Source of the DNA: a virus
Taxonomy: Duplodnaviria; Heunggongvirae; Uroviricota; Caudoviricetes
Length of the DNA stretch: 12,106 bases
IMG/VR virus record: IMGVR_UViG_2744054964_000001
Reading direction: 5' to 3' (one strand)
This document shows positions 1,369-12,106 of the stretch, one piece after another. The position numbers and the translations under genes are program-made. Positions within the stretch are counted from its first letter, which is position 1, and each line of letters opens with the position of its first letter. Under the pieces are notes generated by a model. The model was given only the letters and a program-made list of their open reading frames with translations. It was not told the DNA's origin and searched no databases.

Positions 1369-1444
1369 GCCGATATAGCTCAGTTGGTAGAGCAGCGCAT
1401 TCGTAATGCGAAGGTCGTAGGTTCGACTCCTATTATCGGCACCA
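1369..1444 (+). tRNA. thrW: tRNA-Thr (anticodon CGT), 76 nt including encoded CCA
   Basis: GCCGATATAGCTCAGTTGGTAGAGCAGCGCATTCGTAATGCGAAGGTCGTAGGTTCGACTCCTATTATCGGCACCA: acceptor stem GCCGATA/TATCGGC, D-loop AGTTGGTAG, anticodon loop TTCGTAA, T-loop GGTTCGACTCC, 3' CCA. Position after proA matches thrW. Confidence 0.9.
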
Positions 1445-1609: not shown

Positions 1610-2824
1610 GTGAAACTCAATGCCCGTCAAATAGACACAGCCAAGCCAAAAGAGAAGGCTTACAAGCTGGCCGATGGTGGCGGTTTGTATCTCTTGGTAA
1701 AACCTAATGGAGGTAAATACTGGCGACTTAAATATCGTGTAGCTGGTAAAGAGAAGCTATTGGCACTAGGTGTGTATCCTGAGGTTACTCTAGCCGATGC
1801 GCGAGCTAAACGTGAAGATGCGAAAAGGGGTATCGCTGGTGGTATCGATCCGATGGAAGCGAAACGAGAGGAAAAGATTGCCCGGGAAACGCAGTTAAAC
1901 AACACCTTCAAAGATATTGCCCTTGAGTGGCACAGCAGCAAATTAAAAAAATGGTCTGCTGGTTATGCTTCAGACATCCTCGAAGCCTTCAACAAAGATG
2001 TGTTCCCTTACATTGGCAAAAAACCAATCGCCGAAATCAAACCACTTGAACTTCTGAATGTGCTGCGGCGCATCGAGGGGCGCGGTGCTACAGAAAAAGC
2101 CAAAAAAGTGAGGCAGCGGTGCGGGGAAGTTTTCCGCTATGCAATAGTCACTGGTCGCGCAGAGTATAACCCTGCACCAGACCTTACTAGCGCGATGCAA
2201 GGTCATGAATCTAATCATTACCCTTTCCTTACAGCCAAAGAATTACCTGATTTTTTCAAGGCATTGTCCAGTTACTCAGGAAGCGCATTGGTTGTTATGG
2301 CGGCTCGTCTACTGATTATCACCGGCTTGCGGACTGGCGAACTACGTGGCGCATTATGGGATGAAATTGATTTCAACAAGGCTATCTGGGAGATACCCGC
2401 TTCACGTATGAAAATGCGGCGGCCTCATATTGTGCCATTGTCTGAGCAGGCTCTTTCGCTTATTGGGAAGATTAGAGAAATAACAGGCAATTACCCTCTT
2501 ATGTTTCCCGGGCGCAATGATCCAAGGAAAACAATGAGCGAGGCCAGCATAAACCAAGTGTTTAAGCGCATTGGCTACGCTGGACGTGTAACTGGTCATG
2601 GGTTCCGGCACACTATGAGTACGATTTTGCATGAGCAGGGCTATAACACTGCGTGGATAGAAACGCAGCTCGCTCACGTTGATAAGAACTCAATTCGTGG
2701 CACATACAACCATGCGCAATATCTGGATGGAAGGCGGGAGATGCTTCAATGGTATGCCGACTATATGGATTCTCTCGAGCATGGCGGAAATGTGGTGCAT
2801 ATGGTGTTTGAAAAACACGCATGA
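1610..2824 (+). CDS. int: Site-specific tyrosine recombinase, P4-family integrase (GTG start)
   Basis: 404-aa ORF; N-terminus KPKEKAYKLADGGGLYLLVKPNGGKYWRLKYR is typical of P4-type integrases (DUF4102-like arm-binding domain); C-terminal catalytic region with LRTGELRG, HGFRHT and a C-terminal Tyr; SD GGAGG at 1596-1600; immediately downstream of a tRNA. Confidence 0.9.
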   Translation: MKLNARQIDTAKPKEKAYKLADGGGLYLLVKPNGGKYWRLKYRVAGKEKLLALGVYPEVTLADARAKREDAKRGIAGGIDPMEAKREEKIARETQLNNTFKDIALEWHSSKLKKWSAGYASDILEAFNKDVFPYIGKKPIAEIKPLELLNVLRRIEGRGATEKAKKVRQRCGEVFRYAIVTGRAEYNPAPDLTSAMQGHESNHYPFLTAKELPDFFKALSSYSGSALVVMAARLLIITGLRTGELRGALWDEIDFNKAIWEIPASRMKMRRPHIVPLSEQALSLIGKIREITGNYPLMFPGRNDPRKTMSEASINQVFKRIGYAGRVTGHGFRHTMSTILHEQGYNTAWIETQLAHVDKNSIRGTYNHAQYLDGRREMLQWYADYMDSLEHGGNVVHMVFEKHA

Positions 2825-3475: not shown

Positions 3476-3679
3476 ATGGCTAATTACAATTCATTAATTC
3501 GTCTCTCTGAAGTTCAAAGGCGAACTGGTTATAGCAAAGCATGGATTTATCGTCTTATTAGTCAGGGGAGGTTCCCTAAACAGGTAAAAATTGGAAGTCG
3601 GGCAATTGCTTTTGTTGAGTCTGAAATAGATGAATGGATTGAGAAGTGTATATTAGAATCTAGAGACGAGGTGGCCTGA
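3476..3679 (+). CDS. alpA: AlpA/Vis-family phage transcriptional regulator (excisionase-like DNA-binding protein)
   Basis: 67-aa ORF; sequence LSEVQRRTGYSKAWIYRLISQGRFPKQVKIGSRAIAFVESEIDEWI matches the AlpA family helix-turn-helix pattern; stop overlaps the start of the next ORF (TGATG). Confidence 0.85.
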   Translation: MANYNSLIRLSEVQRRTGYSKAWIYRLISQGRFPKQVKIGSRAIAFVESEIDEWIEKCILESRDEVA

Positions 3680-4110
3680 TGGAAAAGAAAAACCGCCCAT
3701 TACAGGCGGCTAACTCAGATATTCGCACGTCTGATATTACGCCGACCACCAGCCCGGTACAAGTACCTAGGCGTACCCCAAAGAAACACCGCGCCCGCGT
3801 CTATATGCTGCGTACTGGTATAGAGGGATGGACAGAAAACGACATTCTTCGCTACTGCCGTCTGTCTTCTGGTCGTAACTATGCAACAGAGTTAGAACGC
3901 CAGCTTGGAATCACTCTGGAGCGTATCGACGAAAAGAATCCTGATGGTATCGGAACACACCTTCGCTACCGTTTCTCCTGCCGTGGTGATGTTCTGAAAG
4001 TGATCACTCATGTTAACCATCTTGCGAACATAAATGATCACAACGGACTTTCTCAGCAGGAAATTGCCGACATTCTGAAACTCTACCCGGACGCGTTTAA
4101 CGCCGCCTAA
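3679..4110 (+). CDS. Hypothetical protein, 143 aa, translationally coupled to alpA
   Basis: ATG overlaps the alpA stop; SD GAGGTGG at about 3667-3673; basic N-terminal region (PRRTPKKHRAR); no family recognised by eye. Confidence 0.6.
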   Translation: MEKKNRPLQAANSDIRTSDITPTTSPVQVPRRTPKKHRARVYMLRTGIEGWTENDILRYCRLSSGRNYATELERQLGITLERIDEKNPDGIGTHLRYRFSCRGDVLKVITHVNHLANINDHNGLSQQEIADILKLYPDAFNAA

Positions 4111-4122
4111 CGGAGACTGAAA

Positions 4123-4956
4123 ATGAACATCGAAAAAAGCAGATTAATTTCTGAGGCCGCCCCTCATCTGAACGCCTATCAGGGAACAATTAACGGTAAT
4201 GAATTTGCCGCAATTGTCCCGGTTATTCCTGGTCATATCGGTGGGCGTGAAACCAATATTGTTAGCGCAAAAGCGTTACACAAAGCGTTGGGCGTGGGAA
4301 AAGACTTCTCTACATGGATCGCTGATCGCATCTCTGAATATGACTTCACCATTGGGCACGATTACTCAGTCCATAAAACAATTTCCCCAAATCTGGGGAA
4401 AAGCCCGAATGGCGCGGCTTACAGCAAGATTAAACAGTCTGGCAGACCCGGCAAAGACTATCTGTTAAGTGTCGGAATGGCGAAAGAACTGGCAATGATC
4501 GAACGCAATGATCAGGGGCGTGCTATCCGTCGTTATTTCATCCAGTGCGAGGAAGAATTACAGCGTAGCGTGCCTGAAATCGCCGCCCGCTATCGTCGCC
4601 AGCTAAAAGCCCGTATCAGTGCCGCAAACAACTTTAAGCCAATGTGCGATGCGCTGAATATGGCCCGTGCCGAGATGGGTAAAGCGACGCAGCAGCGCCA
4701 CTACAGCAACGAGAGCAACATGATCGCCCGTATCGTGCTGGGTGGCATGACGGCGAAGCAGTGGGCGCAGGCAAATGGCATTACTGGCGAACCACGGGAC
4801 AGCATGAACGCAGCACAGCTTGAACACCTCGCCTATCTCGAAAGCACCAATATCACGTTAATTGATATGGGCATGGAATATGAGCAGCGCAAAGGAGAAC
4901 TCACCCGCCTGTCGCAACGCTGGCTCGCTAAACGTCTGGAGGTAAACCATGCGTAA
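4123..4956 (+). CDS. Phage antirepressor-like protein (AntA/AntB / KilAC-type, Bro-N-like N-terminal domain)
   Basis: 277-aa ORF; motifs SAKALHKALGVGKDFSTWIADRISEYDF and DYLLSVGMAKELAMIERNDQGRAIRRYFIQCEEEL match the pattern recalled for AntA/KilAC antirepressors; SD GGAG upstream. Confidence 0.7.
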   Translation: MNIEKSRLISEAAPHLNAYQGTINGNEFAAIVPVIPGHIGGRETNIVSAKALHKALGVGKDFSTWIADRISEYDFTIGHDYSVHKTISPNLGKSPNGAAYSKIKQSGRPGKDYLLSVGMAKELAMIERNDQGRAIRRYFIQCEEELQRSVPEIAARYRRQLKARISAANNFKPMCDALNMARAEMGKATQQRHYSNESNMIARIVLGGMTAKQWAQANGITGEPRDSMNAAQLEHLAYLESTNITLIDMGMEYEQRKGELTRLSQRWLAKRLEVNHA

Positions 4957-5131
4957 CCATAATCCGATGCCGGGAAGCCGTTACAAGGATTCGCACGGGG
5001 CTGTAGTGACCGTTGAGCGCGTCGAGCATAACCGAGTGACCTTTTACCGCGAGGGCTATCAGTCGCCATGTGTTCAGCCTTTGGAGAGATTCGTTAATGA
5101 GTTCGTGGAGGTGCGCCGTGATACTGAATGA
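4949..5131 (+). CDS. Small DUF4222-like protein (60 aa)
   Basis: ATG overlaps the upstream stop (ATGCGTAA); SD GGAGGT at 4937-4942; sequence PGSRYKDSHGAVVTVERVEHNRVTFYREGYQSPCVQPLERF resembles DUF4222 small proteins common in enterobacterial P4-like islands. Confidence 0.55.
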   Translation: MRNHNPMPGSRYKDSHGAVVTVERVEHNRVTFYREGYQSPCVQPLERFVNEFVEVRRDTE

Positions 5132-5171
5132 ACCTGCCGCCCAGAAAGAAGCCTTTAATCTGGCTGGCATG

Positions 5172-5187
5172 TTGTCAAAAGTTGACA
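5172..5187. promoter_or_regulatory. Operator-like inverted repeat TTGTCA-AAAG-TTGACA (contains a perfect -35 hexamer TTGACA)
   Basis: Read directly; a near-identical site TTGTCA-AAAC-TTGACA recurs at 10615-10630; no strong -10 hexamer at canonical spacing. Confidence 0.35.
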
Positions 5188-5418
5188 TCTGCAACCTTAC
5201 AAAACCTGATATTGATACCGCAGCGCCTGGAGTTCCGTTACCAGTACGCGAGGCGCTTACCCTCAACAAAAAGATGGTGAGCCGTGCACAGGGAAAACTC
5301 TTAAAGGGTTACGGTTTTATCTGGTATGACCACCTAGCAGAGAAAAGCTGTTATAGTCCAAGCGTTGCTGCAAAATCAGCAACCGGGCGTGAGAACCCGA
5401 ACACACTCAGGGCGACAC

Positions 5419-5441
5419 AGACGCCGAAAGCGTCTTTTTTT
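5419..5441 (+). terminator. Rho-independent terminator (AGACGC-CGAAA-GCGTCT followed by T7)
   Basis: 6-bp GC-rich stem, 5-nt loop, run of seven T; preceded by a second hairpin GTTGCTG-CAAAAT-CAGCAAC at 5364-5383. Confidence 0.5.
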
Positions 5442-5507
5442 GTGTCCATTCACTACGCACATCAAATCAGCGGACTTACCCGTACTGTATCAATGGTGGC
5501 GTTAGTG

Positions 5508-5622
5508 GGGCTACGTTCGCGTAGGCCGGTTTCCTTTGTGTCCGGTATTCTCACCCCCGCTGACGTCACCGCCAATTCAGAGCGTGAGAACTCAGGCGGT
5601 GACTCCTTAAACACAAAGGAGG
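5508..5622 (+). promoter_or_regulatory. Candidate C4/CI-type antisense RNA or RBS-masking leader upstream of the icd-like gene
   Basis: Hairpin CTACG-TTCG-CGTAG (5511-5524); CCGG-TTTCCTTTGTGT-CCGG stem-loop (5526-5545) whose loop TCCTTTGTGT (5532-5541) is the exact reverse complement of ACACAAAGGA (5611-5620), which overlaps the SD AAGGAGG (5616-5622) of the icd-like ORF; second copy TTTGTGTCC at 5439-5447. Confidence 0.35.
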
Positions 5623-5630
5623 CTGCCATA

Positions 5631-5822
5631 ATGGCTACTACCCCTACCCAAAAACCGCAATTTATCTGGATTATCGCAGCAGTTCGCCGCGATATGCCGA
5701 CAATTACCGCCAAAATTCACCATATCGCCGCAGAGACTGAGCAGGAAGCCCGCCGCATTCTGGCGCGGGATCACGTTTGCTTTTTTGCCGGACGTATTCG
5801 CACAGGGGGCGCACATGCTTAA
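5631..5822 (+). CDS. Icd-like small protein (putative host cell-division inhibitor, P1 Icd / P4 Kil-like)
   Basis: 63-aa ORF with strong SD AAGGAGG 9 nt upstream; pattern F-W...A..RR ... AAETEQEARRILA ... FFAGRIR matches the remembered Icd-like family signature. This is the 3' part of a 250-aa track ORF (5070-5822) that is otherwise not credible. Confidence 0.6.
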   Translation: MATTPTQKPQFIWIIAAVRRDMPTITAKIHHIAAETEQEARRILARDHVCFFAGRIRTGGAHA

Positions 5823-5994
5823 TTACTTCCGTGTTGCAGGATGCGCCACCGCCAGGAGCGGCGAATTAGTCGAGTTCGTTTATATCGTTGACGCCCGCAG
5901 CGCGATCAGCGCCAAAGCTGAGGCGCTAAATCAGGCCAGAAATGAACGCCTTTCCCACATCCAGATTACCCGCGTTCGTGAGGTGGCGGCATGA
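5815..5994 (+). CDS. Hypothetical small protein (59 aa)
   Basis: ATG at 5815 with SD AGGGGG at 5804-5809; overlaps the icd-like stop by 8 nt; stop overlaps the next start (ATGA). The track's 5785 start is a TTG without SD. Confidence 0.5.
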   Translation: MLNYFRVAGCATARSGELVEFVYIVDARSAISAKAEALNQARNERLSHIQITRVREVAA

Positions 5995-6305
5995 GCATGT
6001 ATGACGATTTAGTGTCCTGCAAATTTGATGGTTGTACACCTGATGATCTGAACGGAATTGAGAGCCGCGCCAGTGATGCCGTGGATGATTTAATGCTGGG
6101 CGTAAGTGCCATTGGTAGCCTCATGTTCTGGGCGGCTGGTAGCGATGGCTACCCGGAGGAAATCGCTAAGGCTGATATGTACAGATTAGGCGCAATGCTG
6201 GGACATATCGGAGAATTTGCGCGGGCGCTGAACGATATCGCTGCAAACGCCGCATTCTTGCGCTCAATCAGTGAAAAAGAAGCCAAAGGGAGGGCGGGCA
6301 AATGA
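5991..6305 (+). CDS. Hypothetical protein (104 aa)
   Basis: SD GAGGTGG upstream; ATGA start/stop overlaps on both sides (translational coupling). Confidence 0.6.
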   Translation: MSMYDDLVSCKFDGCTPDDLNGIESRASDAVDDLMLGVSAIGSLMFWAAGSDGYPEEIAKADMYRLGAMLGHIGEFARALNDIAANAAFLRSISEKEAKGRAGK

Positions 6306-6565
6306 ACATAACTACCATCTATCGCCACCCGGCAGAGCTGGAAGCCGAAGCGATGTTATCCCGCGAGCAGGCTTACCCGGATGATTTTACGCTGGCAGAC
6401 CGAACAGCAGAACGCATGACCCGCGCCCGCAATGGGCTGGCTCACGTTATGACCGATTTATTACCACTCCTCGAAGTTGAGCAAGCAGCCATCGCGTATT
6501 GCTGGCTGAGTAAAGTCCTGACGATTGTCGATATAGCCAGAATTGATGCGGAGGGCAGCGCATGA
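6302..6565 (+). CDS. Hypothetical protein (87 aa)
   Basis: SD AAAGGGAGGG upstream; ATGA overlaps with both neighbours. Confidence 0.6.
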   Translation: MNITTIYRHPAELEAEAMLSREQAYPDDFTLADRTAERMTRARNGLAHVMTDLLPLLEVEQAAIAYCWLSKVLTIVDIARIDAEGSA

Positions 6566-7188
6566 GCAACGCACCGACCATTAAATCGGGAAATGCCGAC
6601 TTATTACACGCCGAAGCCACACCGCACGGCGTCAATATCATGACCCGCAATGATGCCGGGGGATATGAGCAGGTTGCTCTTATCAGCTACGAGAGCGCCG
6701 TGAACGGCCTTGACGCCGGAGAGTACGACGATAAGCCAGATATCGGATACGCCATTCATTTTGCCGTTGCTGATGGCGGGGCGCGTGGCTGGTTCGACTT
6801 CACCGCGCAGCATAACGTCACTATGTGGCGCTGGCTGATTGCTGCGACGTTCATTTCTGAGATGAAGCGCGAAAACGGCACAACCACGGTAACTGAGTCT
6901 GACGGCACTTCATCGCAGGTGGCGATTTACTCCAATGGCACGGCGGGGATTGTGGTTTACCCGTTCGCGGAACGTCTGGCGATGGCTAACAACATGGAGG
7001 GCGCAATGGTTGAGCGCTACGGCATTGAGCAGGGAACAGCGAACGCCATTGTTTTTTATCAGGCCATGATCGACACGGAGCGCGGCGAGTTGACCCCGTT
7101 CGGGCGTGAAACGCTTGCTGAACTTCACAACAGCTTTATAGCTGAACTGGATGAAAACGGCTGGCCTGAAATGCCGCTGGCGCACTGA
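6562..7188 (+). CDS. Hypothetical protein (208 aa)
   Basis: SD GCGGAGGG upstream; ATGA overlap with the upstream ORF; coding-like composition; no family recognised. Confidence 0.65.
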   Translation: MSNAPTIKSGNADLLHAEATPHGVNIMTRNDAGGYEQVALISYESAVNGLDAGEYDDKPDIGYAIHFAVADGGARGWFDFTAQHNVTMWRWLIAATFISEMKRENGTTTVTESDGTSSQVAIYSNGTAGIVVYPFAERLAMANNMEGAMVERYGIEQGTANAIVFYQAMIDTERGELTPFGRETLAELHNSFIAELDENGWPEMPLAH

Positions 7189-7197
7189 GGGGGCGAC

Positions 7198-7539
7198 ATG
7201 ATTACTAAAAATTTCCGACTTAATGCGCTGGCGAATAAGTATGCGTCGGCACTGTATAACCACATTACGGCTATCAATGGTGGCAATTACTTCATGGTTG
7301 ACGCGGCAGGCCAGCAAATCCGTGTGGAGATCGTCAATGGAGTAAAAGGCGTTCGCAGCCTGATCGATAGCTACACACTGGCAGCCATGAAAGTGTCCTA
7401 CCCGCAGTGGGAAACCGTGGGGGTCGAGCTTCTTGAGCGTTGCGTCACTAAGGACGGATTGACTGACGTCGGGCGCGAGATATGGCAAAGCATGGTTAAA
7501 GACATGGGCGCGACAGTGGCAGGAGGCAATCATGCGTAA
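7198..7539 (+). CDS. Hypothetical protein (113 aa)
   Basis: SD GAGGGGG upstream; stop overlaps the primase start (ATGCGTAA). Confidence 0.6.
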   Translation: MITKNFRLNALANKYASALYNHITAINGGNYFMVDAAGQQIRVEIVNGVKGVRSLIDSYTLAAMKVSYPQWETVGVELLERCVTKDGLTDVGREIWQSMVKDMGATVAGGNHA

Positions 7540-9973
7540 TATCGACCTTATCCGCGAAGTGACCAGTGCCGCCGCCGGGCGCTGGCCTTATGTGCTGGCT
7601 GGATTGTCTATCGACGTGCCTGATTCATCGCGCCGCCATTCTCCATGCCCTGCATGTGGTGGAAAAGACCGTTTCAGATTCGACGACAACGGGCGCGGTA
7701 GCTTTATCTGCAACCAGTGTGGCGCTGGTGACGGGCTGGATTTAATCAAGCGGGTTAACAACTGCGACACTACGGAGGCGGCACAGCTTGCCGCTGACGT
7801 GCTGGGTATTGATTACCGGGCAGCGCAAACCGACCCGGTGGCAGCGAGCCATAGAAGAGAGCAACTGGAAGCTGACCGCCAGCAGCGTGAGCAGGAGCGC
7901 CAGAAACAGGCAGCAGAGGATGCAGAGCAGCGAAGGGCTACGTTTGCCCGTCTGTATGCCGGAATGCGCCAGAGTGCCACACAGGGCGAATCTGATTACC
8001 TGCAATCAAAAGGGCTGACCGGGTTTAAATATCCGGTAATGCCGGATGGTTCGTTATTGCTGGAGCTGGTGGACGAATCCGGCGCAGTGGCAGCAGCGCA
8101 AACCATTACACCGCAGGGAGAGAAGCGACTCCTGACAGGTTCAGCAAAGCGCGGGGCATATCACGCCGTAAACGCGCCAGAATCGCCGCAGAGCGTTTTA
8201 ATTGCCGAGGGGCTGGCGACGGCCCTTTCAGTTCACCTGATGCGCCCGGACGCGCTGGCAGTGGCAGCAATTGACGCGGGCAACCTGCTACCCGTTGCCG
8301 AAGTGATGCGCCGGAAACACCCGCAGTCGCAAATTATCATTGCCGCAGATAACGACCACCAGCAGGACGAACAGGCGAACACGGGCAAAGATGCCGCAGA
8401 GAAAGCCGCCTTATCCGTGGCTGGCTGGGTGGCGCTGCCGCCGACAGACTATAAAGCCGACTGGGACGACTACCGCCAGCAAAACGGGCTGGAAGTCGCT
8501 ACGGCTGCGTTTAACGATTCGATGTACCAGATTCAGGGGGAAGCCGTGAAACCACAACTACAGGCCATTGCGGGCGGTAAATCCCGCCGTAAAGCCGAAG
8601 TCGGAGATATTGCACAAATGGCAGCCAGCCAGAAAGCGCGGTTGCTTTCATCTCGATGGGATATGTTGGCGGTTAACCCTGATAGTGGCACTGTTTACTG
8701 TTACGAATCTGGCGTATGGGAGAAGCTACCAGACAGTGAATTAGAAAGGGTTATGGTGGCAATTTTCGACGAGCACGAAGCCCACTACACCGAAAAGGGG
8801 ATTAAATCGGTTGTCGCAACCATGAAGCTGCAAATACCGGTAATTGGTGAGCGGAGCGGGGATCTGATTGGTTTTGATAACGGCGTTTATGACCTCGCCA
8901 CGCAGACGTTTTCCGCCCATTCGCCGGGTAACTGGCTGATGAACCACAATGGGATCACCTACACCCCGCCAGCGCCGGGGGAAAATATTACCACCAGCGC
9001 CCCCAATTTTACCCGTTGGCTGAATCATGCAACGGCTGGCGACCATCATAAGGCCGAGCGTATCAAAGCAGCCTTGTTTATGGTGCTGGCGAAGCGTCAC
9101 GACTGGCAGCTATTCATTGAGATAACTGGCGAGGGCGGCAGTGGGAAATCCGTATTCAGCAGCATAGCAACCACGCTGGCAGGTGAACACAACACCGCCA
9201 GCGGTAGCATGATGACGCTGGACACCGCACGGGGACGAGCGCAGTTCGTAGGAAAAAGCCTGATTATTATGCCTGACCAGACCCGCTATGTTGGAGAGGG
9301 TGCGGGGATTAAGGCCATTACGGGCGGCGATCCGGTAGAGATTGATGGGAAATATGAAAAGCAGTTCACAACCGTGCTAAATGCCGTTGTTATGGCAACC
9401 AATAACGAGCCGATGACATTCACGGAGCGAAACGGGGGCATTGCCCGCCGCCGCGTGATATTCCCGTTTAATAACCCGGTATCAGACGCAGACAAAGACC
9501 CGGATTTAACCGCAAAAATCAGGCGAGAAATCCCGGTGATTATCCGCCACCTGCTAACCACCTTTGCCGACCAGAACAAAGCAAAGGCACTATTACTAGA
9601 GCAGCGCGATTCGCAGGAGGCGCTAGAGGTTAAACGCGGCACAGATCCGGTTGTCGATATGTGTGCGGCGCTTTTTTTCATGAACGAACCCAAAGGCATG
9701 ATGATGGGCGGAGGTACATGGGCAGGCCAGCCAGAGCCGAGGACATATCTTTATCATCTTTATCTGGCGTTTATGGAGTATCACGGCCTGGGTAAACCGC
9801 TTTCCGTCAATAAGTTTTCACGCGCCATAAAATCAGCAGCAAAAGAGTACCGAGCCAGCTACCTGACGAGAAGCATTAACGGCAGAGCGCAAACCAACGT
9901 TGGCTATAACGAGAAGGCTGAGGAGTTCATGCCACGCGCTTACGGCGTGGAGAGCGGGCAGAGTGATGATTGA
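7532..9973 (+). CDS. P4 alpha-type bifunctional DNA primase / helicase
   Basis: 813 aa; N-terminal Cys4 zinc ribbon (CPACGGKDRF...CNQCGAGDG); Toprim-like acidic motifs (LIAEGLATA, IIAADNDHQQDE); C-terminal P-loop GEGGSGKS (nt 9128-9151) of D5_N/SF3-type helicase; SD AGGAGG upstream. Confidence 0.9.
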   Translation: MRNIDLIREVTSAAAGRWPYVLAGLSIDVPDSSRRHSPCPACGGKDRFRFDDNGRGSFICNQCGAGDGLDLIKRVNNCDTTEAAQLAADVLGIDYRAAQTDPVAASHRREQLEADRQQREQERQKQAAEDAEQRRATFARLYAGMRQSATQGESDYLQSKGLTGFKYPVMPDGSLLLELVDESGAVAAAQTITPQGEKRLLTGSAKRGAYHAVNAPESPQSVLIAEGLATALSVHLMRPDALAVAAIDAGNLLPVAEVMRRKHPQSQIIIAADNDHQQDEQANTGKDAAEKAALSVAGWVALPPTDYKADWDDYRQQNGLEVATAAFNDSMYQIQGEAVKPQLQAIAGGKSRRKAEVGDIAQMAASQKARLLSSRWDMLAVNPDSGTVYCYESGVWEKLPDSELERVMVAIFDEHEAHYTEKGIKSVVATMKLQIPVIGERSGDLIGFDNGVYDLATQTFSAHSPGNWLMNHNGITYTPPAPGENITTSAPNFTRWLNHATAGDHHKAERIKAALFMVLAKRHDWQLFIEITGEGGSGKSVFSSIATTLAGEHNTASGSMMTLDTARGRAQFVGKSLIIMPDQTRYVGEGAGIKAITGGDPVEIDGKYEKQFTTVLNAVVMATNNEPMTFTERNGGIARRRVIFPFNNPVSDADKDPDLTAKIRREIPVIIRHLLTTFADQNKAKALLLEQRDSQEALEVKRGTDPVVDMCAALFFMNEPKGMMMGGGTWAGQPEPRTYLYHLYLAFMEYHGLGKPLSVNKFSRAIKSAAKEYRASYLTRSINGRAQTNVGYNEKAEEFMPRAYGVESGQSDD

Positions 9974-9990
9974 AACTTTTACGGCGGCAC

Positions 9991-10238
9991 TTATCCCTAC
10001 TGCCCTACTAAAAACGAGACGAGGCCAGACGTAGCAAGGCTTTAAACTAGGTAGGGATATATATTTTTATCCCTACTTATCCCTACATATCCCTACCAAA
10101 TAAAACAGGCAGCAAAATGCCGTTGAAGTGATTTAGTAGGGATAAGTAGGGTTATGTAGGGCAACAAAATTGAATGCCTACCAGTCTGAAAGCCTTGCCA
10201 TTCGTGGCCTGAGACAGTTAGTAGGGATTGGTAGGGAT
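9991..10238. repeat. Iteron cluster (about 11 copies of the octamer ATCCCTAC / GTAGGGAT in both orientations) flanking an AT-rich stretch; putative replication origin
   Basis: ATCCCTAC-orientation copies at 9993-10000, 10003-10009 (variant), 10069-10076, 10079-10086, 10089-10096; GTAGGG(A/T)T-orientation copies at 10051-10058, 10137-10144, 10146-10153, 10156-10163, 10221-10228, 10231-10238; ATATATATTTTT at about 10057-10068; immediately downstream of the primase-helicase gene. Confidence 0.55.
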
Positions 10239-10292
10239 ATTACACCCCCAAAAAGATTCTATGGGGGGGGTAGCTTATAACGAAGGTGGGCA

Positions 10293-10689: not shown

Positions 10690-10766
10690 TTTTGCAATTA
10701 CGGTGATAAATATTGCTATTTGTGAAACTATAATAACTGTTGTTTTATACAGTTCTAAGGGGCGTT
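10690..10766 (+). promoter_or_regulatory. AT-rich promoter region for the downstream cassette (TATAAT at 10729-10734; SD TAAGGGG at 10756-10762)
   Basis: Consensus -10 hexamer and AT-rich upstream tract; candidate -35 hexamers (TTGCTA, TTGCAA) lie at non-ideal spacing, so the exact promoter is not resolved. Confidence 0.3.
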
Positions 10767-10940
10767 ATGGCTATTTCAGCAAAGCCGGTATTGATAAGTG
10801 AGAAGCAAATGGAAGCGATAAAGAAAATTCAGGAGGAGCAGCGTAAAAAATCAGAGGTAGGAGTTGCGCCAACGATCCACGAAATTGCTCGGGGATTAAT
10901 GGATAAGGCGCTGGCCTCACTGGCAAGCGAGGGCGCGTAA
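10767..10940 (+). CDS. Small ribbon-helix-helix-like protein (57 aa), putative DNA-binding partner of the downstream metallopeptidase
   Basis: ATG at 10767 with SD TAAGGGG (the track's 10740 start is a TTG); predicted beta-strand PVLIS followed by two helices (EKQMEAIKKIQEE; PTIHEIARGLMDKALASL), typical of CopG/Arc-like proteins; stop overlaps the next start (TAATG). Confidence 0.5.
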   Translation: MAISAKPVLISEKQMEAIKKIQEEQRKKSEVGVAPTIHEIARGLMDKALASLASEGA

Positions 10941-11611
10941 TGGGCGCCATTCACCAGATATATGAGCATGAAATGTTCTATAACTGGATAGGTGATGGTA
11001 AACGATGTGTAGCATTCCACGAAGCGGGACATGCAGTAGCTGCATGGCTTATTCGCTTAGATATACAGGTTATCGCCGTTATGGATGAATACGGTTACGT
11101 TGCTGGCGAACATGTACATGAGGCCAAGTGTTTGGGTGTTGTTAAACACAGCATAATTCACAGCCACGATCTAGGGCGTTTGCGGGATAGTAAATCTGGT
11201 GTAGTTGGGCAGAATGGTAAAGTTATCCCTTTCATACGTTACTATGCGGATGGTATAAAGCGCGATGCAAAAAAGGCCGCTTTTGTATCCCTCGCCGGAC
11301 CAGTAAGCGAAGCCCTTTACGAAAACAACGATATTTTCAACAAAAAGTATTCGCTACCTCATCGCTATGACATGGCTAACGTAAATGACATGCTCGATTT
11401 AATCTGCGCTACAGATAAGCGAATTAACAGGGAGTTAATGCTTTCTAAACTCGTTGAAAAGACCAAAGCCCTCATGTCTCAATACTGGTATGAAGTAGAA
11501 AAAATAGCGCATTTGCTTGAACGGGATAGCATTGTGAATGGTCGAAATGTTAGCTCGTTAATTGGCATCAACGTCATAGACCGGGCAACGCCATTTTTGC
11601 TGGTGGAATAA
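10940..11611 (+). CDS. Standalone HExxH zinc metallopeptidase, FtsH / peptidase M41-like catalytic domain without AAA+ or transmembrane modules
   Basis: 223 aa; motif AFHEAGHAVAAWLI followed by IQVIAVMDEYGYVAG aligns by eye with the FtsH protease-domain segment YHEAGHAIIGRLV...VHKVTIIPRG; downstream SLAGPVSEAL aligns with FtsH TLYGGRLAEE (third zinc ligand region); visibly lower GC than neighbouring genes. Confidence 0.7.
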   Translation: MGAIHQIYEHEMFYNWIGDGKRCVAFHEAGHAVAAWLIRLDIQVIAVMDEYGYVAGEHVHEAKCLGVVKHSIIHSHDLGRLRDSKSGVVGQNGKVIPFIRYYADGIKRDAKKAAFVSLAGPVSEALYENNDIFNKKYSLPHRYDMANVNDMLDLICATDKRINRELMLSKLVEKTKALMSQYWYEVEKIAHLLERDSIVNGRNVSSLIGINVIDRATPFLLVE

Positions 11612-11824: not shown

Positions 11825-12106
11825 ATGGTAAACGACAGTAAAGCCGAGGATCTGGAAGCAAAAGGGCTGTACCGACGCGCCGCAGCGCGATGGATGGAAG
11901 TCATGCTGTTATGCACCGAGGACGATGATCGGGAATGGATAAAGCGCCGCCGTGAAACGTGTCTGGAGAACGTGAAGCGCCCGCCCGTGAAGGTTGAGGA
12001 CTTTGGCGACCTACATAAAGCTGTTACCGAAACGCAACACCGCATGGGGATAGCGCAACCGAACGGTAACGCCTTCCGGTTAAATGGCGGCAAGAGGCAA
12101 AGGTAG
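11825..12106 (+). CDS. PerC-like small transcriptional regulator (93 aa)
   Basis: SD GGGGAG upstream; N-terminal AEDLEAKGLYRRAAARWMEVM resembles the conserved PerC-family signature common in enterobacterial P4-like islands; TAG stop at the last three bases of the window. Confidence 0.5.
   Translation: MVNDSKAEDLEAKGLYRRAAARWMEVMLLCTEDDDREWIKRRRETCLENVKRPPVKVEDFGDLHKAVTETQHRMGIAQPNGNAFRLNGGKRQR

Follow-up and report, generated by a model that had tools for sequence, protein, structure and literature searches.

The 12,106-nt stretch examined here (IMG/VR virus record IMGVR_UViG_2744054964_000001; the whole stretch is called the window) starts with proA and a tRNA-Thr(CGT) gene. Judged from its integration site and gene order, it is a phage-inducible chromosomal island (PICI), a type of phage satellite, of the EcCIMP1 family, located at tRNA-Thr next to proA. 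Our analysis concerns the five plus-strand open reading frames (ORFs) that extend from the stop of an icd-like gene (a gene for a cell-division inhibitor) to the start of a primase gene and are named o1 to o5. The initial annotation had described them as five coupled ORFs, each with its own Shine-Dalgarno (SD) sequence, and re-reading of the sequence, RefSeq and independent gene calls returned the same frames at the same lengths (Table 1). A purine-rich SD sequence is positioned 4-7 nt upstream of every start, from o1 to the primase. At the head of the chain, the icd-like stop and the o1 start have 8 nt in common (ATGCTTAA), the o1/o2, o2/o3 and o3/o4 junctions are ATGA overlaps, and at the far end the o5 stop and the primase start share 8 nt (ATGCGTAA). 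The chaining by ATGA or 8-nt overlaps that had been reported for the whole series is present at all of these junctions; the sole departure is o4/o5, where the genes do not overlap and are separated by a 9-nt gap.

The five ORFs are confirmed as real protein genes and not chance ORFs, because they are present as the same five coding sequences in the RefSeq annotation of other E. coli genomes, because the exact 59-aa o1 protein is indexed in 4537 blocks of an assembly collection, always with the same 104- and 87-aa genes after it, and because dN/dS of o3 to o5 is low. Using the Nei-Gojobori method and homologues of graded divergence, we obtained ratios of 0.12-0.41 for o3, 0.10-0.38 for o4 and 0.06-0.32 for o5, indicating purifying selection. 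The ratio of o1 (0.33-0.38) comes from distant pairs only. For o2, dN/dS was not estimable, with 5-7 nonsynonymous versus 0 synonymous changes in close pairs (not significant); its homologues at 35-49% identity are intact. In ten further assemblies, independent gene calling gave the same ORF lengths with the ORFs intact in all ten, and the presence/absence analysis across related elements, which had been proposed as a check, also found them kept as intact frames. That the chain consists of chance frames or of a translated non-coding region would fit the missing matches in Pfam and NCBIfam and a 207-aa ORF on the opposite strand (6910-7533), but this explanation has next to no likelihood and is already refuted for o3 to o5: dN/dS of the plus frame is well below 1, hundreds of homologous clusters have conserved lengths, the AlphaFold2 models of o4 and o5 are confident, the ORFs have SD sites and overlap coupling, and RefSeq and the independent gene calls concur.

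Upstream of o1, a long ORF with an Ash and an Icd-like part reads through a module of immunity RNAs. The NCBIfam family phage_ICD_like (NF033153) matches at 5631-5822 (1e-20), and the ORF is 43% identical to the P4 'cI137' ORF. It was called as a single ORF of 220-303 aa and is open in 10/10 assemblies. Rfam identified the a1/b1 targets, an isrK/P4 seqA-like element and a full-length C4/P4 CI-type antisense RNA in this region, and a terminator scan detected a hairpin followed by a T run within the isrK-like element (5419-5435). The C4 loop TCCTTTGTGT pairs over 10 nt with ACACAAAGGA, which covers the SD of the ATG at 5631, and the C4 element TTCTCAC is complementary to GTGAGAA at 5389-5395 (a1) and at 5584-5590 (a2). 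Put differently, the ribosome-binding site (RBS) of icd is the b2 target for a C4/CI-type RNA whose gene lies 55 nt upstream, and the hallmarks of P1/P4 antisense immunity are found together: a C4/CI RNA, targets on both of its sides, b2 over the icd RBS and an Icd/Kil-like ORF. Among related PICI loci, C4 is kept in 7/9 and isrK in 6/9. A sequence scan revealed no promoter-like or terminator-like site between 5436 and 8029. Because the C4 loop is complementary to the icd RBS, the o1-o5 chain would most likely be silent until C4-type immunity is overcome.

Matches to C4 and isrK in Gram-negative PICIs have been recognised as relatives of the P4 CI RNA and seqA, and in P4 the CI/seqA elements are embedded in eta/kil, where translation of eta prevents termination (PMC10111431). 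The footprint of the Pfam Ash match (nt 5352-5655) coincides almost exactly with the a1b1/isrK/C4/a2b2 module, and much of the conservation of the 'Ash protein' may reflect RNA genes. A first view of the Ash match as a spurious translation of these RNA genes was softened in the light of the ORF being intact in 10/10 assemblies and of the P4 eta precedent. A C4/isrK pair was also seen in the Stx2d phage Stx2_112808 (782-970 of the locus); it belongs to the early-right region, runs on the strand that does not carry the o4 homologue of this phage, overlaps a hypothetical coding sequence and is a few hundred bases away from the replication O gene.

The cassette is two-layered, with a satellite-only, fast-swapping head (o1-o3) and a conserved tail (o4-o5) that is common to temperate phages. 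Of 5426 complete E. coli genomes, 370 have interval-like DNA; only 35 of these carry the full five-gene version, and most of the others have an EcCIMP1-type cassette. Scanning one genome per species for o5 homologues yielded 46 loci, nearly all in Enterobacterales, and the few exceptions look mislabelled. These loci fall into two classes: a PICI type with the order int - alpA - ... - C4/icd - small ORFs - o4 - o5 - primase, and a prophage type with the order antirepressor ... o4 - o5 ... xis/int without an adjacent primase. The end of an o4 homologue lies 8-17 nt before o5 in 29/46 loci. To quantify the turnover of the interval, its ORFs were clustered for 24 PICI-type loci with o5 as anchor (24/24 by design): o4 was present in 20, o3 and a 73-aa family of EcCIMP1 in 14 each, o1 and o2 in 5 each, together with several further small families. 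The order in these loci is invariable, with the variable head followed by o4, o5 and the primase. Three records, with the titles Pseudomonas lundensis, Chryseobacterium sp. and 'Elizabethkingia phage EKP1', contain island or prophage sequence of the enterobacterial type whose proteins are 60-80% identical to those of E. coli, and they are probably contaminated or mislabelled.

Among 50,697 phage records, tblastn gave no match for o1, o2 or o3, 36 for o4 and 2 for o5. In the phage records with o4 or o5, the genes are part of a repressor-controlled early-left operon, often beside an antirepressor gene. The phages with o4 have unrelated replication modules (O protein; DnaC/DnaB; DEAD-box helicase plus primase; toprim primase-helicase), and the idea that o4 tracks alpha-type primases was rejected on account of these several unrelated replication systems. 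Likewise rejected was a constant position of o4-o5 behind a C4 RNA: no C4 RNA was found upstream of the pair in any of the 22 phage or prophage loci scanned (18 prophage-type genomic loci and 4 phage records). The tail itself can be incomplete, as o4 is cleanly missing in locus L002 and in 4 of 10 assemblies with an identical o1, leaving a 55-nt spacer between o3 and o5. This o4-less variant is common, its other genes are near-identical, and the spacer is located at 9751-9806 in L002 and at 4751-4806 in L141, L145, L146 and L148. Such islands represent a natural deletion/insertion polymorphism that would be useful for functional tests.

The first reading of the interval had matched none of the five proteins to a family. 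This holds for o1 to o5 in Pfam and NCBIfam, and in the anti-phage defence collection PADLOC-DB with noise-level hits only (E >= 0.027). Three of the proteins belong to PHROG families, all labelled 'unknown function', with matches over most of the protein: o4 to phrog_1515 (2.4e-45), o5 to phrog_37628 (9.1e-48) and o2 to phrog_6805 (5.6e-11) and phrog_15327 (3e-10). For o3 there was no PHROG match, and for o1 no family match in Pfam, PHROG, NCBIfam or PADLOC. Sequence and profile searches of the PDB returned nothing below E 0.17 for o1-o5. From alignments of database homologues, AlphaFold2 produced confident models of o5 (pLDDT 91.8, pTM 0.84) and o4 (pLDDT 88.6, pTM 0.83), which matched no PDB or viral fold. 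The o2 family comprises 31 representative clusters among 1.84 billion proteins and has a conserved core, G..aiG.LmFWA...Y; a deep o2 search found no Pfam domain in the family, nor did three longer proteins that contain a stretch resembling o2 reveal any informative domain. Membrane, DNA-binding or catalytic domains were not detected in o1-o5. The net charge is -7 for o2, -6 for o3 and -18 for o4, while o1 is basic and o5 near neutral. Taken together, the five proteins are uncharacterised families, three of them already PHROGs of unknown function.

Comparisons with the P4 genes of the equivalent slot were negative throughout. The P4 epsilon family PF25738 matched P4 eps at 9e-51 and none of o1-o5; BLASTP of the five proteins against P4 eps gave E > 1, and the o2 profile reached an hhalign probability of 0.1% with P4 epsilon. 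Neither BLASTP nor hhalign related the proteins to P4 eps, orf151 or cnr, the hhalign probabilities for Cnr being 4% (o4 profile) and 0.2% (o5 profile). Antirepressor domains (AntA/AntB, Bro-N, KilAC/ORF6N) had no Pfam match in o1-o5 at E <= 0.1, and DUF5375 (PF17345, Cnr) had none in o4 and o5 of the window. Faint precomputed Pfam labels on o4-family proteins had pointed to Cnr/DUF5375, but a re-scan recovered 1/150 members at E = 0.012 and the lead was dropped as unsupported; an IMG/VR scan for diverse Cnr homologues for profile building returned near-identical copies only. The remote-homology searches and structure prediction called for at the outset therefore assign no ORF to a characterised replication-accessory family. 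The helper-manipulation or anti-immunity functions that the initial annotation expected at this position gained no direct support, none of the five proteins being related to P4 epsilon, orf151, Cnr or antirepressors.

Secondary-structure elements follow one another in the C-terminal half of o4 as they do in o5, and an LTxxGRE motif is present in each protein. That this half is a paralogue of o5 is a suggestion only, as hhalign aligns the two colinearly but without significance (E = 0.11). Homologues of o2, o3 and o4 bear the database names 'ubiquinol-cytochrome C reductase', 'nicotinic acetylcholine receptor subunit beta' and '2-polyprenylphenol hydroxylase related flavodoxin oxidoreductase'; one of them is located at 9177-9751 in L002, others occur in the phage matches. 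These names have no support from profile searches and look like propagated errors. A literature search with the RefSeq protein accessions found no paper.

The remaining genes of the window are in accordance with its assignment to the EcCIMP1 family (Table 1). The gene order int, alpA, pri is co-directional, as is characteristic of Gram-negative PICIs and as in EcCIMP1. The attL core is found within the window and attR lies outside it. Over 812 aa, the primase shares 38% identity with P4 alpha (3e-172). Directly downstream of the primase gene, TATCCCTAC occurs in at least 5 copies and inverted GTAGGGATA in at least 5 copies; this iteron array is probably the replication origin of the island, and origins of Gram-negative PICIs are located downstream of pri (PMC10111431). 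In the part of the window downstream of the primase (10740-11611 and 11825-12106), a 66-aa ORF that recurs in many related islands is followed by a gene for a 223-aa protein with an HEAGH metalloprotease-like motif and a weak FtsH-type match only, and then by a PerC-like ORF; these genes could be cargo with an accessory or defence role. Between int and alpA, 6/9 related islands have the Rfam int-alpA RNA motif (RF02996), which was not reported for the window at E <= 1.

Table 1. Features of the window (positions in the 12,106-nt stretch)
Feature	Position	Strand	Remarks
tRNA-Thr(CGT), integration site	1369..1444	+	ARAGORN
att core (attL) TCCTATTATC	1428-1437		within tRNA-Thr; identical to EcCIMP1 att core (PMC11773190)
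Tyrosine integrase	1610..2824	+	homologues annotated as integrase; Pfam integrase domains in relatives
AlpA-family regulator	3476..3679	+	heads long co-directional run; Pfam Phage_AlpA 7e-20; 100% identical to EcCIMP1 AlpA
143-aa conserved protein, function unknown	3679..4110	+	94% identical to EcCIMP1 homologue
AntA/AntB-type antirepressor homologue	4123..4956	+	Pfam AntA 1.8e-21; 5' of immunity-RNA module, not 3'
60-aa ORF, DUF4222 by homologues	4949..5131	+	RefSeq name of 98%-identical homologue; precomputed PF13973 in relatives; PHROG matches of its own
Eta/Kil-like long ORF (Ash + Icd-like)	5070..5822	+	Pfam Phage_ASH 5e-21; Icd-like part from ATG 5631; reads through RNA module
a1/b1 targets of C4 RNA	5351..5403	+	Rfam RF03163, 54.3 bits (gathering score 46.7)
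isrK / P4 seqA-like RNA element	5364..5440	+	Rfam RF01394, 68.7 bits (gathering score 50)
C4 / P4 CI-type antisense immunity RNA	5489..5576	+	Rfam RF01695, 76.9 bits (gathering score 45), full length
a2 target GTGAGAA	5584-5590	+	exact complement of C4 5548-5554
b2 target ACACAAAGGA	5611-5620	+	exact complement of C4 loop 5532-5541; overlaps icd SD
SD of o1	5804-5809	+	AGGGGG
o1	5815-5994	+	59 aa, basic, pI 9.2; in satellite-only variable head
SD of o2	5980-5986	+	GAGGTGG
o2	5991-6305	+	104 aa, acidic, pI 4.5; small family with motif G..aiG.LmFWA...Y
SD of o3	6288-6294	+	GGGAGGG
o3	6302-6565	+	87 aa, acidic, pI 4.7
SD of o4	6550-6555	+	GGAGGG
o4	6562-7188	+	208 aa, strongly acidic; first gene of conserved o4-o5 pair
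SD of o5	7189-7193	+	GGGGG
o5	7198-7539	+	113 aa; second gene of conserved pair; stop overlaps primase start
SD of primase	7521-7526	+	AGGAGG
P4-alpha-type primase-helicase	7532..9973	+	Pfam Zn ribbon, Toprim, D5_N, DUF5906
Putative replication origin	9989..10240		TATCCCTAC / GTAGGGATA iterons, 10-nt phasing, around AT-rich core (repeat search)

The closest described relative is EcCIMP1, the PICI of E. coli MP1 (PMC11773190, OR778291), which occupies the same site, tRNA-Thr by proA, with the same core TCCTATTATC and has the same order, int - alpA - 143 aa - antA - DUF4222 - ash/icd - small ORFs - primase - ... - PerC. Protein identities between the two islands are 100% for AlpA, 94% for the 143-aa protein, 92% for AntA, 88% for o5, 64% for o4 and 60% for o3 (87 aa in EcCIMP1). 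The EcCIMP1 interval differs in having six ORFs (64, 87, 73, 200, 113 and 123 aa) with no counterpart of o1 or o2. In addition, the EcCIMP1 primase has a DUF927-type C-terminal half and P22-like ejection-protein genes follow downstream, whereas the window primase is of the D5_N/DUF5906 type. The 123-aa protein of EcCIMP1-type islands, encoded between o5 and the primase, is a distant o5 paralogue (21% identity, with an L-T-x-x-G ... W-Q motif in common) and is located at 16168-16536 in EcCIMP1 (L004) and at 8335-8706 in L013. EcCIMP1 induction requires AlpA; helper-dependent excision, replication and transfer have been shown only for EcCIMP1, with phage Kapi1, and the interval genes were outside that study (PMC11773190).

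Phage P4, whose left operon has the order vis/orf88 - eta/kil with CI RNA and seqA - eps - orf151 - cnr - alpha, resembles the window in its AlpA/Vis homologue, an eta/kil-like ORF holding CI/C4 and seqA/isrK-like RNAs, small ORFs and an alpha-type primase (38%). Unlike in P4, none of o1-o5 is detectably related to eps, orf151 or cnr, no sid, delta or psu is present within the window, and the origin iterons are immediately downstream of the primase. In the same way as in the immI region of P1/P7 (c4 RNA - icd - ant), a C4 RNA with a'/b', a1b1 and a2b2 targets and b2 over the icd RBS is followed by an Icd-like gene heading a translationally coupled chain. The differences are that the genes downstream are not ant, that the AntA-type gene lies 5' of the RNA module, and that an isrK/seqA-like terminator element sits between a1b1 and C4. 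The positional analogy to P1 and P4 drawn initially is right, and stronger than the first reading could show: a C4/CI RNA with its targets lies 5' of icd, the primase is related to P4 alpha, and the five ORFs therefore fill the slot of eps-orf151-cnr in P4. The AntA homologue of this element is encoded upstream.

A similar layout is found in the cell-death locus of E. coli ECOR61, in which small overlapping ORFs and then a DNA primase gene come after an Icd-like gene that is extended at its N-terminus; six linked genes act together there (bioRxiv 10.1101/2023.04.06.535777). The likeness is one of layout, and the sizes of the small ORFs differ, being about 61 and 63 aa in ECOR61 as against 59 and 104 aa for o1 and o2. 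Homologues of o4 (30-38% identity) and o5 (60-64%) are encoded in the same order by temperate enterobacterial phages (phiP27 L06, Stx phages, CharmingMan, phi467, EKP1 and Klebsiella prophages) and are all uncharacterised. Unlike in the window, these pairs are located in the early-left region (repressor to xis/int) under a protein repressor, without C4 upstream on that strand and without an adjacent primase.

On balance, we lean towards the view that o1-o5 form the accessory segment of an immunity-RNA-gated early/replication run (alpA ... eta/icd - o1..o5 - primase) and are protein-binding accessory factors. In the resting island, the C4 RNA would block icd translation and/or cause premature termination, so that o1-o5 and the primase stay silent. 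The whole chain would be produced jointly once AlpA-driven transcription and translation pass the eta/icd ORF, or once the island enters a naive cell. The five proteins would then bind to proteins of the host or of a phage as the active phase begins, with a part in host takeover, counter-defence or exclusion. With moderate confidence we consider o1-o5 to be small binders of host or phage proteins at this stage, because of their small size, their mostly acidic character and the lack of any detected domain of a membrane, DNA-binding or catalytic kind. An essential part in replication is improbable for them, given that primase and origin make up a complete module and that o4 can be absent.

Several points weigh against this interpretation. 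The RNA gate of this element is read from complementarity and from the P1/P4 precedents, and the isrK-like terminator (5419-5435) means that read-through needs antitermination or translation coupling, which is assumed here. The function of o1-o5 is assigned by neither experiment nor homology, acidity and a lack of motifs are weak grounds for calling a protein a binder, and constraint on o2 and on the basic, tiny o1 is less well documented. Moreover, the primase starts -16 to +1 nt from the o5 stop in 21 of the 46 loci, i.e. in every PICI-type locus, which would also fit a primase partner.

Such a partnership, in which o5 (perhaps with o4) assists the alpha-type primase-helicase in a Cnr-like role (copy-number control, loading or origin recognition) and the coupling provides stoichiometry, appears unlikely to us. 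It would explain the overlap of the o5 stop with the primase start in the window and the close spacing in all 21 PICI-type loci, whose primases have a D5/DUF5906 or a DUF927 C-terminal half, as well as the position of the second, distant o5 paralogue of EcCIMP1 between o5 and primase. The two phage records with o5, EKP1 and phi467, encode Zn-ribbon/toprim primases elsewhere in the genome, and some o4-family proteins carry the faint DUF5375 label. Yet the Cnr comparisons failed in hhalign and in the re-scan, the prophage pair resides in an early-left operon far from replication genes, o4 occurs with four unrelated replication systems and is dispensable, and o4 and o5 are acidic or neutral without a DNA-binding motif. 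An essential role in alpha-type primase function is unlikely for o4 and less likely for o5, because the pair occurs with unrelated replication systems and away from the replication genes of prophages, and because o4 can be lost; the invariable o5-primase overlap in PICIs nevertheless keeps a primase partner under consideration. Distinctly unlikely, in our judgement, is an Icd/Kil-based module for abortive infection or exclusion, in which disturbance of the RNA immunity by an incoming phage would make the icd-to-primase chain kill or arrest the cell, the small ORFs being needed for this toxicity. The case for it comes from ECOR61, where the phage accessory protein orf24 triggers cell death via an element of the same layout, Tn5 suppressors mapped to the Icd-like gene and to the next two small ORFs, and removal of the Icd-like gene abolished cell death; the death phenotype also needs linked genes including a primase, and the same Tn5 screen hit AlpA, Icd-like, cnr and primase genes of a P4 prophage (bioRxiv 10.1101/2023.04.06.535777). 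The first small ORF of that locus overlaps the Icd-like gene by 8 nt, if its start coordinates are 0-based. On the other hand, the likeness of the ECOR61 ORFs to o1/o2 is one of layout, Tn5 insertions upstream of a primase can act by polarity, the immunity phenotype of EcCIMP1 was not mapped to interval genes, and o4-o5 also occur in prophages without a nearby icd or C4.

A strict helper-manipulation role, with one or more of o1-o5 acting as an epsilon-like derepressor or antirepressor of the helper repressor or as an interference factor that redirects the helper, is in our estimate very improbable. The slot is equivalent to that of P4 eps, and the satellite-only genes o1-o3 swap rapidly among related islands, as expected for factors tracking diverse helpers. 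The proteins, however, do not resemble P4 epsilon (PF25738) or the families Ant, Bro and KilAC, the element already has an AntA antirepressor gene farther upstream, and EcCIMP1 left helper titres and CI reporter expression unaltered (PMC11773190). That temperate phages themselves carry o4-o5 argues against a satellite-specific role of this kind for these two genes. Returning to the gated accessory segment, a more specific and rather doubtful proposal is that o4-o5 constitute an unrecognised two-protein module without known fold, common to Enterobacterales satellites and temperate phages and expressed at the start of the active cycle. The module would act on a host or rival-phage target, as counter-defence or as an Icd-type exclusion sensor/effector, and o1-o3 would serve as adaptors specific for a helper or a trigger, comparable to the genes that transposons hit in the ECOR61 locus.

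The element is a further member of the EcCIMP1 family, and its architecture is ordinary and not surprising in itself, being already known from the P4 left operon, P1 immI and the 'Bro zone to Replication zone' of Gram-negative PICIs; its proteins are uncharacterised. Added here are the RNA gate seen in the sequence, the split into head and tail, o4-o5 as a module of phages and satellites, and ECOR61 as a testable lead; in addition, several misleading database protein names are corrected. A satellite-only variable head and a phage-shared tail pair with confident models and no known fold provide a defined experimental target. The same slot holds a helper derepressor and a copy-number regulator in P4 and genes for phage-triggered cell death in the ECOR61 element, and in the common island family described here, with interval-like DNA in 370/5426 E. 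coli genomes, it is filled by a swapping set of proteins to which no function is assigned.

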